Shown piece after piece: positions 27,101-33,100 of a stretch of DNA of 64,000 nucleotides. Numbering within the stretch: the stretch's first letter is position 1; every line of letters begins with the position of its first letter. Where the stretch lies: assembly GCF_013167455.1 (NCBI RefSeq), contig NZ_CP038328.1; one strand, given 5' to 3'. This stretch comes from Escherichia coli O157:H7 (GTDB taxonomy: Bacteria; Pseudomonadota; Gammaproteobacteria; Enterobacterales; Enterobacteriaceae). Made by a program: the position numbers.

Positions 27101-30100
27101 AGTCATAAGCTTCCCGGCTTACTAAGACTACCAGGGCGGGGGAAACCCCGCTCTACCCTCACTCCTGAAAGTATGCCTTCACGATAAGATTGTCAATCTG
27201 CAGGCTTTGCAGTCTGCGATCCTGCCAGCAAATATTCTTTGCGAGACGTTACGCAATAATCACACTGGAAACTATTTTATCCGCAAGTCAGCGATAGACT
27301 GCATGCATGGCGAAAGGAGGTAAGCCGACGATTTCAGCGGGATGCTGAAACGGGAAAGCCCCTCCCGAGGAAGGGGCCTTAAATAAGAAAAGGGTTATGA
27401 TGAAGCACGTCATCATACTGGTGATACTCTTAGTGATTAGCTTCCAGGCTTACTAAGAACACCAGGGGGAGGGGGAAACCTTTCCCTAACCCTCACTCCT
27501 GAAATTATGTCACTCCGCCCTTAGTGTCAATCGACGGCTCTCCGTTCTTGCGAGGCGAATAGCAAAATTTTCTGCGCCGCCGGGCCTAATTCTGAAAGTT
27601 TCTTCGTTTGCTCTTATTTCATTATTGCAATCGGTATGATACCGGACCTCAATAATTCTCTAAGAAAGGATTTCTTATGAGCGAACAAATCACGTTTGCC
27701 ACCAGCGATTTTGCCAGTAACCCGGAACCACGTTGCCCCTGCATTTTGCTGCTGGATGTTTCTGGTTCGATGAACGGTAGACCCATTAATGAACTTAACG
27801 CCGGATTGGTTACCTTTCGCGATGAGCTGCTTGCCGACCCGCTGGCCTTAAAAAGAGTGGAACTTGGTATTGTGACGTTCGGCCCGGTGCATGTGGAACA
27901 ACCCTTTACCAGCGCCGCTAATTTTTTCCCGCCCATCCTGTTTGCCCAGGGGGATACACCAATGGGTGCCGCCATTACCAAAGCCCTGGATATGGTAGAG
28001 GAGCGGAAACGTGAGTATCGTGCAAATGGTATTTCGTATTATCGCCCGTGGATTTTCCTGATCACCGATGGTGCACCAACCGATGAGTGGCAGGCTGCCG
28101 CCAACAAAGTGTTTCAGGGGGAAGAAGATAAGAAGTTTGCCTTCTTTTCCATCGGTGTTCAGGGGGCGGATATTAAGACTCTGGCACAAATCAGCGTTCG
28201 TCAGCCTTTGCCACTGCAGGGATTACAATTCCGTGAACTGTTTAGCTGGTTATCCAGTTCGCTGCGTTCGGTTTCCCGCTCCACGCCGGGAACGGAAGTT
28301 GTGCTGGAAGCGCCAAAAGGCTGGACGTCAGTGTGAGCTGGCGTCTGGTTTATGCATCCGCTGTTGGAACGTCGCACATTAGCGCTGATTTACCTTGTCA
28401 GGATGCCTGCCAGATGCAGGTTGCCTGGCTAAATGACCAGCAGCCATTACTGGTGATGTTCCTTGCTGATGGCGCAGGCAGTGTCTCGCAGGGTGGCGAA
28501 GGCGCGATGCTTGCCATCAATGAAGCGATGGCTTATGTGTCGCAAAAAGTGCAGCACGGTGAATTTGGACTCAATGATATTCTCGCCACGGATATTGTGC
28601 TGACCGTTCGTCAGCGACTTTTTGCCGAGGCGGAAGCTAAAGAATTAGCAGTTCGCGATTTTGCCTGCACGTTTCTGGGATTGATTTCATCGGCTAACGG
28701 CACCTTGATTATGCAGATTGGCGATGGCGGCGTGGTGGTGGATTTTGGTCACGGTCTGCAATTACCGCTTACGCCGATGGTGGGTGAATATGCCAATATG
28801 ACGCATTTCATTACCGATGAAGATGTCGTTTCCAGACTGGAAACTTTCACCAGCACTGAGCGTGCGCATAAAGTTGCAGCATTTACGGATGGTATTCAGC
28901 GACTGGCGTTAAATATGCTGGATAATTCTCCGCATGTGCCTTTCTTTACCCCGTTTTTCAATGGACTGGCGGCAGCAACGCAGGAACAACTCGATTTATT
29001 ACCTGAATTGTTAAAGCAGTTTTTGTCGAGCCCAGCGGTAAACGAGCGTACCGATGATGATAAAACGTTGACACTGGCGCTGTGGTTACCATGAAACCCA
29101 CTTTATATACTGCTACTGGTGAGTGCGTTACGCCAGGCCGTGAACTGGGCAAAGGTGGCGAAGGCGCGGTTTATGATATCAATGAGTTTGTCGATAGCGT
29201 CGCCAAGATTTATCACACGCCGCCACCCGCCTTAAAACAGGACAAACTTGCCTTTATGGCTGCGACAGCTGACGCGCAGTTGTTGAATTATGTCGCCTGG
29301 CCGCAGGCAACGCTTCACGGTGGACGAGGCGGAAAAGTTATCGGTTTTATGATGCCAAAAGTTTCTGGTAAAGAACCGATTCATATGATCTATAGCCCGG
29401 CACATCGTCGCCAGAGTTATCCTCATTGTGCGTGGGATTTTCTACTCTATGTTGCGCGCAATATTGCTTCATCTTTTGCTACGGTTCACGAGCACGGGCA
29501 CGTCGTGGGGGACGTAAACCAGAACAGCTTTATGGTAGGTCGCGACAGCAAAGTGGTGTTGATCGATAGTGACTCCTTTCAGATTAACGCCAATGGCACA
29601 CTGCATTTATGCGAAGTCGGCGTGTCGCATTTTACGCCGCCAGAGCTACAAACCTTGCCATCATTTGTCGGTTTTGAACGTACCGCGAATCACGATAATT
29701 TTGGCCTTGCGTTGCTGATTTTTCACGTCTTGTTTGGTGGGCGGCATCCTTATTCTGGTGTGCCGCTTATCTCTGATGCGGGTAATGCGCTGGAGACGGA
29801 TATTGCCCATTTCCGTTATGCCTACGCGTCAGACAACCAGCGACGTGGTTTAAAACCGCCGCCACGATCGATTCCGCTGTCGATGTTACCGGGCGATGTT
29901 GAAGCCATGTTTCAGCAGGCATTCACGGAAAGTGGCGTGGCAACCGCGCGTCCGACGGCAAAAGCGTGGGTAGCGGCACTGGATTTACTACGCCAACAGT
30001 TAAAGAAATGTACCGTTTCGGCAATGCATGTTTACCCCGGTCATTTGACTGACTGCCCGTGGTGTGCGCTGGATAATCAAGGCGTTATCTATTTTATTGA

Positions 30101-33100
30101 TCTCGGCGAAGAGGTCATTACCACCAGTGGTGATTTTGTGCTGGCGAAAGTCTGGGCGATGGTGATGGCGTCAGTAGCACCGCCAGCATTGCAATTGCCA
30201 TTACCCGATCATTTCCAACCGACTGGCAGGCCGCTTCCTTTAGGCCTGTTACGGCGCGAATACATCATTCTGATTGAGATCGCACTGTCAGCGTTATCGC
30301 TGTTGCTTTGCGGCCTTCAGGCAGAACCGCGTTATATTATTTTGGTTCCTGTGCTGGCGGCTATCTGGATTATTGGCAGTCTGACAAGCAAAGTTTATAA
30401 AGCAGAAATCCAGCAACGCCGTGAGGCATTTAATCGCGCGAAAATGGACTATGACCATTTAGTCAGCCAGATCCAACAGTTGGGCGGGCTGGAAGGTTTT
30501 ATCGCCAAACGGGCGATGCTCGAAAAAATGAAGGACGAAATTCTCGGGTTACCGGAAGAGGAGAAACGCGCTCTGGCAGCACTTCATGACACTGCAAGGG
30601 AACGGCAGAAGCAGAAGTTTCTGGAGGGATTTTTTATTGATGCTGCCTCTATTCCCGGCGTTGGCCCTGCGCGTAAAGCGGCGTTACGGTCTTTTGGTAT
30701 TGAAACAGCCGCGGATGTTACCCGTCGTGGGGTTAAGCAAGTTAAAGGGTTTGGTGATCATCTGACCCAGGCGGTTATCGACTGGAAAGCGAGCTGTGAA
30801 CGCCGTTTTGTGTTCAGGCCGAACGAAGCGGTAACGCCTGCAGAAAGACAAGCGGTAATGGCGAAAATGGCCGCCAAACGACATCGGCTGGAATCGGCGT
30901 TGACTGTCGGCGCGACAGAGTTGCAGCGATTCCGCCTTCATGCTCCAGCACGGACCATGCCGTTGATGGAACCGTTACGTCAGGCGGCAGAAAAACTGGC
31001 TCAGGCGCAGGCAGATTTAAGCCGCTGCTGAGCCATTTTTCAATTAACGAAACACCACTTCCGCCCAGCGTGCCAGCCCGGCGGTGACGGAGCCAAAGTC
31101 ATCGCCGCCTGCAATCGGAATGCCCGGCAACTGTTCTGCCAGCGCTTTTTTAATCAGCGGAGAACGGGCGCTTCCGCCGGTCAGGTAGATAACGTCCGGT
31201 TTTTCCTGGGCGTTATCCAGCGCCAGTTGCACCTGTTCCTGAATCCGCGCCAGTGGCTGGCTGAGGGCGCTTTCCAGCCCTTGCTGGCTAATCAGCGTAG
31301 CCAGTTCATCGCTGATAAACGGCAGTGAGGCGCGGGTTTCCGCTACGCTTGAAAGCGCAATTTTGCACTCTTCTGCGCTACGCACCAGGCGATAGCTTAA
31401 ACGCTGACGCCAGACTTTCTGTAGCAGGGCCACTTTTTCCGGTTCGCGGGCATCGCGTACCAGATCGTTAAGCAGACGACCGTTGGCACTACTGTAGAAA
31501 TCACTCTGCGCAGGTACGTCGTTGATGGCAACCGCATTCCACCACGGCAGAATCGGCAGGGCGATGCCTTTTTCGGTTTCGCCACCCATACCCAGCAGTG
31601 GCATCAGGTTTTTAAACGCCAGTGCGATATCCAGATCGTTACCGCCAATACGGCAACCACTGTGACCCAGCAGGCTGGCTTCACGATCGAGACGCGAACG
31701 CCACTGCGGCCCCATCAGCAGCAATGAACAGTCAGTCGTACCACCGCCGATATCCACCACCAGTACCCGTTTTTCTTCCTGTAAGGTGGCTTCGTAATCC
31801 AGCCCAGCCGCTACCGGCTCGTACTGGAATACCACGTCCCTGAATCCGGCACGCTTCGCCGCGCGTTCCAGAATCCCTTGCGCCTGGGCGTTTGCTTCAT
31901 CGCCGCCCAGCCCCTGGAAGTTGATCGGGCGACCAATCACCGCCTGAGTAATCGCTTCTGGCAGCTGCGCTTGCGCCTGCTGGCGAATGTGCAACATCAT
32001 TGCGCAGACCAGATCCTCAAACAGCGCTACCTGCTGCGGTTTTAAGCCGCTGGCACCGAGGAACGATTTTGGTGATTTCACAAACCACACTTCTTCTGGA
32101 TCATCAATGTACTGTGCCAGTGAGGAAAGACCGAACTGCACGCTTTTCGCCGTAACATCGATATCTTCTTCGCGATTATAACGAATCGCCCGACGCAACA
32201 GTGCCTGCGTTTCATCGTCGTCTGCCGGAACATCATGATGGCGGTACAGCCATTCGCTTACCGCTTCACGCGTTGGCGCGCAAAGCATTGAAGGCAGCAG
32301 CGTGCTGTCGTTTTCCATTTTTAGCAAGTGCGGTTTACCGTCACGCATGACCGCTACTGAACAGTTTGCTGTACCGTAATCAAAACCAATAAACACGAAA
32401 TAATCCCCATGCCGGTGAAGAAGGGGCGTGACTTTAGCGAAATGTTGCCGTCGCGACAACCGGAATATGAAAGCAAAGCGCAGCGTCTGAATAACGTTTA
32501 TGCTGAAAGCGGATGAATAAGGAGATGCGATGTATACCCTGAACTGGCAGCCGCCGTATGACTGGTCGTGGATGTTGGGATTTCTCGCCGCCCGTGCAGT
32601 GAGTGGTGTGGAAACGGTCGCTGACGATTATTATGCCCGTAGTCTGGCGGTGGGCGAATATCGCGGCGTGGTGACTGCTATTCCGGATATAGCCCGCCAT
32701 ACTCTGCACATAAATTTAAGTGCAGATTTAGAACCCGTTGCCGCTGAGTGTCTGGCGAAAATGAGCCGCCTGCTTGATCTGCAATGTAACCCGCAGATTG
32801 TTAACGGTGCGTTGGGCAAGTTAGGCGCGGCGCGGCCCGGATTGCGTTTACCCGGCAGTGTTGATGCTTTTGAGCAAGGCGTGCGGGCGATTTTAGGCCA
32901 ACTGGTGAGCGTGGCGATGGCGGCAAAATTGACTGCCAAAGTGGTACAGCTTTATGGCGAACGGCTGGATGATTTTCCGGAGTATATCTGCTTCCCCACG
33001 CCTCAGCGGCTGGCAGCAGCAGACCCGCAGGCATTAAAAGCGTTAGGTATGCCGTTGAAACGGGCAGAGGCGCTGATTCATCTGGCAAATGCGGCGCTGG

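Follow-up and report, generated by a model that had tools for sequence, protein, structure and literature searches.

TerY-P systems are triads that consist of a vWA (von Willebrand factor type A) protein resembling TerY, a PP2C phosphatase and a Ser/Thr kinase with a zinc ribbon at its C-terminus, as two published studies (PMC11090510; PMC4978471) summarize the work of Anantharaman, Iyer and Aravind (2012) on ter (tellurite-resistance) clusters. The TerY-P systems tested so far protect against T7-like phages (Autographiviridae), with most cells surviving, and the anti-phage TerY-P kinase described by Gao in 2020 ends in an oligonucleotide/oligosaccharide-binding (OB) fold, according to the passage of PMC11090510 that treats it. 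Costa et al. (2024) reported a Pseudomonas aeruginosa TerY-P variant that was found by eye, was missed by both PADLOC and DefenseFinder, and protects against Autographiviridae. Sets of vWA, PP2C and zinc-ribbon kinase genes have also been proposed to act as a signaling add-on to defense systems, in the part of PMC11090510 concerned with them. Here, we analyze yegL-pphC-yegI, a vWA, phosphatase and kinase triad within a stretch of 64,000 nucleotides of Escherichia coli O157:H7 (contig NZ_CP038328.1 of assembly GCF_013167455.1), hereafter the window. YegI and PphC are among the few eukaryotic-like Ser/Thr signaling enzymes of E. coli, and the original prediction, made from the sequence of the window, described the triad as a coupled operon of TerY-P-like architecture and as a candidate phospho-signaling or phage-defense module. 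We find little room for doubt that the locus is yegL-pphC-yegI and a member of the TerY-P class, and that the yeg type is a distinct subfamily of that class, one that stands alone and has a transmembrane, helix-hairpin-helix (HhH) kinase.

The yegL-pphC-yegI operon

The three genes of the triad lie on the + strand. The first, yegL (27677..28336), encodes a TerY-type vWA protein of 219 residues and was recovered both by an open reading frame (ORF) scan and in the RefSeq annotation. It is followed by pphC, formerly yegK (28333..29094), which has a GTG start and encodes a PP2C-family Ser/Thr phosphatase of 253 residues, and by yegI (29091..31031), which encodes a membrane-anchored Ser/Thr kinase of 646 residues from its ATG; the mechanical ORF opens upstream of this codon, at the GTG at 29082. 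The sequence reads cagtGTGAgctgg at 28333..28336, where the GTG start of pphC lies on the TGA stop of yegL, and taccATGAaaccc at 29091..29094, where the ATG start of yegI lies on the TGA stop of pphC. Both 4-nt overlaps are therefore real, confirming the three co-directional, overlapping ORFs that had been predicted, at their coordinates. In a strain with 100% identity across these genes, RefSeq gives yegL, pphC and yegI the same ends as here, under the product names vWA domain-containing protein, PP2C phosphatase and protein kinase YegI. Several O157-type chromosomes match 27400-31300 at 100% identity, and NZ_CP030767 matches 15400-43300 at 99.99%. The ATGA overlap in B and O157 strains was noted previously (bioRxiv 10.1101/819920). 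Elsewhere, the called vWA and PP2C genes overlap by 4 nt in L002, L003, L004, L007 and L092 and by 16 nt in L089-L091. The E. coli triad is one tightly packed operon. The upstream intergenic region (27531..27676, + strand, 146 bp) is presumed to hold its promoter; a promoter and terminator scan returned no sigma-70-like site upstream of yegL, and the scan as a whole was no better than shuffles.

The same evidence bears on whether the three ORFs are adjacent by accident, or mis-called, and do not act together. Only the lack of a mapped transcript speaks for this explanation. Against it stand the 4-nt overlaps, the biochemical pairing of the kinase with the phosphatase, and the order vWA-PP2C-kinase on one strand, which we observed in 82/84 loci with enough upstream DNA; in the remaining two, only the vWA gene is displaced. 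Because this order recurs in loci from very distant taxa, across phyla, the arrangement is not due to chance, and accidental adjacency is for practical purposes refuted.

Membership of the TerY-P class

When YegL was searched against plasmids with tblastn, the matches beyond its orthologs were almost only TerY proteins of ter clusters, at 29-36% identity. On a Klebsiella pneumoniae ter plasmid, the genes run in the order TerY, TerX, TerY, TerY with a TerY-C domain, PP2C (577 residues) and kinase (499 residues). Profile hidden Markov models (HMMs) built from the yeg-type families match each of the corresponding components: the YegL-family HMM scores 72-90 bits against the three TerY paralogs, the YegK-family HMM scores 67 bits against the PP2C, and the YegI-family HMM scores 62 bits against the kinase. 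This last match spans HMM positions 124-328, the CHCC motif described below included, and reaches residue 382 of the ter kinase, thereby covering a CQNNDC...CPYC cluster that we read by eye. As the family HMMs match all three ter-cluster components, all five features that define TerY-P are found here, namely a TerY-type vWA with a metal ion-dependent adhesion site (MIDAS), a PP2C, a kinase, a predicted kinase-zinc ribbon fusion and a conserved neighborhood. The TerY-P-like architecture that was originally proposed is thus borne out by profile similarity to TerY, PP2C and the zinc-ribbon kinase alike.

The two types agree in their three components and in the order of these, and differ in their elaboration. 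The ter-cluster system has three TerY paralogs, one of them with TerY-C, a long PP2C and a soluble kinase, all within a large ter/biosynthetic cluster, whereas the yeg type is minimal and stand-alone, with a single vWA protein, a PP2C less than half as long and a kinase extended by a transmembrane hairpin, coiled coils and an (HhH)2 segment. A DUF4236 gene recurs near yeg-type triads (L008 3962-5182; L090 12507-13616; also L016, L027, L032 and L068), and the classical ter cluster with a TerY-P triad on the K. pneumoniae plasmid encodes DUF4236 too (L093 4099-5322).

The Gao 2020 and Costa 2024 systems resemble the yeg type in being stand-alone vWA, PP2C and kinase cassettes in which the C-terminus of the kinase is of a nucleic-acid-binding type. 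Compared by description, the Gao-type kinase ends in its OB fold, whereas YegI carries a transmembrane hairpin, a coiled coil and (HhH)2, all helical. Using the published primers, we found no match to the P. aeruginosa variant in metagenome or viral contigs, and a homolog search seeded with Pseudomonas YegI had no P. aeruginosa protein among its best 120. Triads of McrBC-like operons consist, as in yeg, of a vWA, a PP2C and a zinc-ribbon kinase but are integrated into those operons, whereas no partner genes are conserved with the yeg type, which has transmembrane and HhH parts added.

Among other bacterial kinases, the PknB/PstP and PrkC/PrpC pairs share with YegI/PphC a bilobed eukaryotic protein kinase (ePK) fold with an essential Lys and Asp, and activation-loop autophosphorylation that is undone by a co-encoded PP2C. 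Unlike these kinases, YegI has no extracytoplasmic PASTA-type sensor, has VGD in place of HRD and an essential DSD in place of DFG, falls below the Pfam Pkinase threshold, and has an obligatory vWA partner. Stk2, PD-T4-6 and Mokosh MkoA offer a further likeness, being ePK-fold kinases that are possible defense effectors, and YegI gives weak PADLOC matches to PD-T4-6 and MkoA over the catalytic core; these systems differ in being without vWA or PP2C partners, and the 14-19 bits of the matches reflect generic kinase similarity.

Architecture of the triad proteins

The original prediction assigned YegI a Hanks-type kinase core. Against Pfam, YegI has no Pkinase match and has instead a weak HHH_5 match at residues 515-550, so that the Pfam search proposed as a check would have 'failed' for the kinase. 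We therefore aligned 56 YegI homologs (33-63% identity) and used them for an AlphaFold (AF2) model, which has a mean predicted local distance difference test score (pLDDT) of 92.7 and a predicted template modeling score (pTM) of 0.77. In Foldseek, the model superposes on the kinase domains of PknB, CaMKII, BRAF and Aurora with target-normalized template modeling scores of 0.65-0.73. By this model, YegI is a Hanks-fold (ePK) kinase, of an atypical kind: the predicted core stands as to fold and as to its essential Lys and Asp, and the canonical HRD and DFG motifs are replaced by VGDxNQxS and DSD. The kinase domain covers approximately residues 1-300 (29091..29990), as judged from the alignment, Foldseek and published mutagenesis, and the residues invariant across the 56 homologs are G22, E24, K39, D141, N143, D159, D161, S162, P184, E185 and R197. 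Published biochemistry has established that YegI is an active Ser/Thr kinase that prefers Mn2+, that K39 and D141 are essential for autophosphorylation, that changing DSD to DFG abolishes activity, and that autophosphorylation occurs on S153, S160 and S162 with second-order kinetics (bioRxiv 10.1101/819920).

Directly after the kinase domain, the alignment reveals a putative zinc ribbon, C307-x5-H313-x8-C322-P-W324-C325 (30009..30065), in which the four Cys and His ligands and W324 are invariant in the same 56 homologs. The AF2 model has a small beta-hairpin and a helix at this CHCC motif, and we read it as a probable zinc ribbon. A variable Pro-rich linker follows, and then two transmembrane helices at approximately residues 388-407 and 412-430 (30252..30380), located by Kyte-Doolittle peaks, AF2 helices and published topology. 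The loop between them, QAEPR, is 5 residues long and leaves no extracytoplasmic sensor domain, and PhoA-LacZ fusions support a two-pass topology with both termini cytoplasmic (bioRxiv 10.1101/819920). In the alignment, a coiled coil connects this hairpin to a cytoplasmic (HhH)2-like domain at approximately residues 510-572 (30618..30806), which is recognized by conservation, HHH_5 and local Foldseek matches and has the consensus IxGIGPxRKAxLxSFGIETAADV...VPGFG...W565...F573. The protein ends in a long helix or coiled coil (residues 583-645; 30837..31025), apparent in the AF2 models and the alignment, that terminates in a conserved LAQAxADL.

The HhH assignment is reasonable, not strong. HHH_5 matches YegI with E 0.0016-0.008 and matches 15/30 family members at E<=0.1. 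A separate model of the C-terminal 207 residues (440-646) is all helical, with a pLDDT of 95.8; a fold search with these residues returned no global structural match, and the compact C-terminal part resembles the N-terminal HhH of Rad51/Dmc1 (probability 0.93-0.97, root-mean-square deviation 2.6-2.7 A over 60-69 columns) at an E-value of about 1. It is this E-value, together with the partial coverage of the family by HHH_5, that keeps the assignment from being strong. NCBI and JGI name YegI homologs 'helix-hairpin-helix domain-containing'. The kinase and zinc-ribbon module (YegI residues 1-330) also occurs with other C-termini (plasmid matches H65, H66, H83 and H69-H82). On sphingomonad plasmids, this module is found in proteins annotated 'topoisomerase DNA-binding C4 zinc finger', and on rhizobial plasmids, shorter kinase-only forms adjoin a PP2C.

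The vWA and PP2C assignments of the original prediction are both upheld by Pfam. YegL matches VWA (E 3.9e-9), and its MIDAS-like motif DVSGSM is found at residues 27-32 (27755-27772), with the DxSxS motif, D27-V-S-G-S31, at 27755..27769 as read in the sequence. The MIDAS is complete, with D27, S29, S31, T94 and D131 at least 97% conserved in 77 sequences, and the same level of conservation is seen in a Ser-rich C-terminal tail (W191, L192, S193, S195, S200 and S202). PphC matches PP2C_2 (E 9.5e-49), and across 79 sequences its metal-binding residues D24, D46, D131, D186, D242 and D243 show conservation of at least 97%. PphC has been shown to be active as a PP2C-like phosphatase and to dephosphorylate YegI (10.1101/303594, Rajagopalan and Dworkin), so for the kinase/phosphatase pair, the phospho-signaling module envisaged for this locus already has its experimental proof. 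A PDB sequence search with YegL and YegI gave no significant match. YegL, the non-enzymatic member, is the best conserved of the three, with a median identity to the E. coli protein of 66%, compared with 42% for PphC and 40% for YegI (medians over 78-81 non-Escherichia, non-duplicate loci among L002-L088).

Distribution and transfer of the cassette

The YegI family comprises 9635 clusters at 50% identity, mostly of about 646 residues. In a scan of one genome per species, at least 543 genomes encode a YegI relative, and these genomes belong to beta-, gamma- and alphaproteobacteria, Frankia, Georgenia, Planctomycetota, Acidobacteria, Chlorobiaceae, Synergistaceae, Clostridiales and several Methanoregula archaea. 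Clustering 1527 neighbor ORFs revealed no conserved fourth gene, and the recurrent neighbors of the triad (a TetR-like gene, a Cys-rich secreted protein and ABC transporter genes) are lineage-specific only. We considered yegD as a fourth member and rejected it, as it accompanies the triad in Escherichia loci only. The triad is a self-contained, autonomous and widely transferred cassette.

The E. coli copy was itself probably acquired horizontally. E. coli YegI is 60-63% identical to the copies of Piscinibacter, Chromobacterium and Klebsiella spallanzanii versus 41-43% to those of Pseudomonas, and Escherichia and K. spallanzanii are the only enterobacteria among the best 80 genome matches. Sequence relationships thus indicate horizontal acquisition, as YegI is nearer to betaproteobacterial than to Pseudomonas copies and few enterobacteria appear among those matches. 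The GC content of the triad is 49-52%, compared with 55-59% in mdt and yegD; this value lies too near the average of E. coli to speak for a recent transfer, and we dropped that argument. Megaplasmids also carry YegI homologs, among them the 425-kb plasmid NC_009444.1 of Pseudomonas fluorescens SBW25. In a phage genome collection, such homologs are essentially missing, with one weak partial match only. PHROGs holds full-length, near-identical families for YegL, PphC and YegI (phrog_28389, phrog_37072 and phrog_37888), all of unknown function. With no real YegI homolog in the phage collection, we regarded these matches as uninformative; the entries are probably host genes drawn into prophage predictions.

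Genomic company outside Escherichia

We considered ten Pfam-annotated contexts from outside Escherichia, taking in neighbors within 10 kb. Six of these contain known defense systems, three are variable or resemble mobile genetic elements (MGEs), and one is made up of housekeeping genes. In Piscinibacter (L002), the triad lies near NYN, SLFN-like helicase, MazG-like, ScoMcrA-like, SNase and BrxR genes and the Wadjet component JetB. The Chromobacterium locus (L003) has AbiH, a KAP NTPase and Tn7-like TnsA/B/TniB/TniQ genes, and that of K. spallanzanii (L004) has BrnA, GmrSD, SymE and type I restriction-modification (RM) genes. A metagenomic locus (L007) combines type I RM with Mrr. In P. citronellolis (L089), Kiwa, a 1708-residue helicase, Nmad2/3 and a large MmeI/Eco57I-type methyltransferase are found together with genes of an integrative and conjugative element (ICE), and the Massilia locus (L090) has BrxR, Wadjet-like Jet/Mks genes (DUF3584, MksE and DUF2399), DUF4236 and E2/E1/JAB. 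The variable or MGE-like contexts (L008, L091 and L092, from various sources) contain HipA, an AHH toxin and an AcrVA2-like gene.

For ten further loci, two large neighbors each were compared with PADLOC. Two matches are clear: a full-length Avs2 (2926 bits) directly upstream of the triad in Rhodoferax (L012) and a type II cytosine methyltransferase in Chromatium (L023). Another two, to a PDC-M72A candidate and (also in L023) to an RtcR-like CARF regulator, are weak or ambiguous. Homology searches additionally placed type I RM or Mrr homologs near the triad in L016, L019, L021 and L040. Together, these contexts are suggestive of the triad keeping more defense and MGE company than the average gene.

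A highly conserved basic protein of ~69 residues (MKFGMRKPSLKK...GWGWLTNPKRAAYNRVYSRTTFS...) adjoins the triad in six loci, mostly betaproteobacterial (L002 7719-7928; L007 8075-8284; L008 7700-7912; L013 4165-4410; L019 11966-12169; L054 7716-7925). It has no Pfam match and is not present in E. coli. In L002, L008 and L054, an SNase-family nuclease gene lies between this gene and the vWA gene.

A proposed role and mechanism

We propose that PphC would keep YegI unphosphorylated and the kinase off. The putative zinc ribbon and the membrane-proximal cytoplasmic (HhH)2 domain of YegI could bind nucleic acid, for example entering phage or plasmid DNA, and the flanking coiled coils would then pair two kinases, allowing trans-autophosphorylation on S153, S160 and S162. 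Active YegI may phosphorylate YegL, possibly at its Ser-rich tail, proteins of the host or the invader, or both. YegL would serve as a MIDAS-dependent adaptor that sets the output, and PphC would reset the switch. In line with this mechanism, the cassette may be a conflict or defense module that moves horizontally between defense islands and mobile elements; in Escherichia, it would have been acquired once, fixed between ibs/sib and yegD, and would now be weakly expressed and often disrupted.

Besides the genomic company, we count in favor of such a role the phage protection given by other TerY-P systems, the endogenous DNA damage raised by overproduced YegL or YegI and the repeated mutation of yegI in phage-free culture. 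We assign a conflict or defense role of the yeg-type family a probability of roughly 0.5. A bolder form is tentative and on the doubtful side: that the yeg type is a widespread, uncatalogued, stand-alone anti-phage or anti-plasmid system in which a membrane kinase senses DNA at the inner membrane, and of which E. coli, laboratory B strains included, would have a cryptic copy in its core genome. Native protection by the triad in E. coli itself seems unlikely. For yegL-pphC-yegI as a locus, a defense role is plausible but unproven.

The genes, the enzymology of the kinase and phosphatase, the ATGA overlap, the yegJ insert in K-12 and the low expression were already known. What is new is the stand-alone, transmembrane-HhH TerY-P subfamily, its absence from PADLOC and its frequent company with defense islands. 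Placing this subfamily beside Avs, Kiwa, Wadjet and restriction systems turns an 'unknown function' into a specific, testable prediction. Should a defense role prove true, a large family missing from PADLOC would join the defense catalog, the sensing of infection by TerY-P triads would gain its first mechanistic handle, and a model organism would offer an example of a defense cassette turned into core genes that are mostly silent. Should it fail, the conserved vWA, kinase and HhH architecture would still point to a DNA-linked membrane signaling pathway. The description of the locus as poorly characterized was only half true, as two biochemical papers are devoted to its enzymes.

State of the locus within Escherichia

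A number of observations weigh against the proposed defense role. The triad locus is present in 5417/5426 complete E. coli genomes at one fixed chromosomal position, which is atypical for defense systems. Expression of the locus was not detectable or robust in the two papers of Rajagopalan and Dworkin, and a 2026 paper likewise describes it as barely expressed. The literature searched reports no phage or plasmid phenotype for yegL, pphC or yegI. E. coli B is a classical permissive host of T phages. As this strain has the intact coupled form (bioRxiv 10.1101/819920), native protection would have to be narrow, conditional or silent. The association with defense genes is suggestive only, being drawn from raw neighborhood counts; one metagenomic cassette (L006) sits among housekeeping genes, and 6/10 further loci are without a PADLOC match among their two large neighbors. 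On the side of mechanism, the HhH assignment is weak by E-value, DNA binding by YegI is a prediction, and YegL as a YegI substrate is pure inference.

The defense models themselves also give little. The PADLOC check (PADLOC-DB v2 models, scans at E<=0.01 and E<=10) was negative for the triad proteins, with YegL reaching 12.6 bits (E 0.017) against the TerY model, PphC without a match and YegI having only generic kinase matches (PD-T4-6 and MkoA, 14-19 bits). In a control, the PADLOC models also missed the classical ter-cluster TerY proteins. The negative is thus not refuting, since models that miss the classical triad describe one narrow branch and are too narrow to decide. The candidacy for phage defense that was originally put forward is therefore carried by contexts in other taxa, which are suggestive, and is weakened in E. 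coli, where the locus is core, reportedly near-silent and often disrupted.

The fixed position is equally what would be expected if the triad were domesticated in Escherichia for housekeeping stress signaling, that is, a Ser/Thr kinase-phosphatase pair of eukaryotic-like type with an adaptor, responding to an endogenous signal (stress to the membrane or to DNA, metal/tellurite-type stress, or stationary phase), adjusting host proteins by reversible phosphorylation on Ser/Thr and having no anti-phage role. The E. coli neighbors of the triad fit such a role, being the envelope-stress genes mdtABCD-baeSR, the chaperone gene yegD and the repair gene alkA, as do the homology of YegL to vWA proteins of tellurite-resistance clusters, with the TerC-family gene yegH 10 kb away, and the housekeeping surroundings of the L006 cassette. 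Expression of yegI has been reported in stationary phase only, at a low level (bioRxiv 10.1101/819920), and in a published screen, overproduced YegL and YegI each raised endogenous DNA damage. However, in no other genus is any of the E. coli neighbors kept alongside the triad, and the distribution, which is patchy and at odds with phylogeny, extends to archaea, plasmids, a Tn7-like element and an ICE, with many copies inside bona fide defense gene clusters. We consider domestication without an anti-phage role improbable, if worth keeping in view.

How intact the locus is within E. coli bears on domestication and on decay alike. The region is retained over at least 80% of its length in 5400/5426 genomes, mostly at 95-99% identity, and the pphC-yegI junction is contiguous as in the window in 3471/5426 complete genomes. 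The junction is broken near 29085 in about 1930/5401 genomes (about 36%), a degree of tolerance that speaks against a domesticated function. The one broken-junction genome that we inspected has a ~720-bp insert with yegJ in antisense orientation (L094 3668-4128); this yegJ is frameshifted, and so is yegL. A yegJ insertion is known from K-12 and was described as a K-strain feature (Rajagopalan and Dworkin); the inspected genome indicates that it is not confined to K-12. In two Escherichia sp. genomes, the yegI frame is interrupted and the ORF ends early (L009 8671-10059; L010 4500-6059), due to either a pseudogene or an assembly error.

These disruptions could also mean that the triad is a decaying relic in E. 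coli, silent acquired cargo that is active in vitro and brings no fitness benefit or only a cost. Consistent with this, there is no robust transcription under any reported condition and no convincing upstream promoter, at least one strain has a frameshift in yegL, and the kinase ORF is interrupted in L009 and L010. According to a citation in the Dworkin paper (10.1101/303594), the sole source for it, yegI was repeatedly mutated in long-term phage-free culture. This last point cuts both ways, as recurrent beneficial mutations imply that yegI is expressed enough to matter. Decay is further opposed by the broad retention of the region, by the three intact ORFs of the window, and by the preservation there of all residues invariant in 56-79 distant homologs (the MIDAS, the PP2C Asp residues, K39/D141/DSD, CHCC and HhH). 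We regard a functionless relic as distinctly unlikely. Both the domesticated module and the decaying relic are compatible with an ancestral defense role of the cassette.

Neighboring features in the window

The triad is placed between three tandem ibs/sib toxin-antitoxin modules and yegD, which is Hsp70-like and convergent. The three SIB antitoxin RNAs lie on the - strand at 26726-27530 (Rfam RF00113, 140-145 bits, ~328-bp spacing), each opposite an annotated Ibs type I toxin ORF on the + strand, directly upstream of yegL. In NZ_CP027445, two Ibs ORFs are annotated at the same place, so the ibs/sib copy number varies by strain. The triad had been said to flank a hotspot; the three ibs/sib copies are real, but with the position of the triad fixed in nearly all genomes, the hotspot itself is weakly founded. 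Farther downstream, yegH, encoding a TerC-family membrane protein, is found at ~41050-42633, ~10 kb from the TerY-type triad, and a helix-turn-helix antitoxin and RelE/ParE toxin pair lies at about 40357-40975. The diguanylate cyclase gene dgcE (yegE, 33479-36797) is annotated as a frameshifted pseudogene in a near-identical strain, and the longest ORF that the window has in this dgcE stretch ends at 949 residues.

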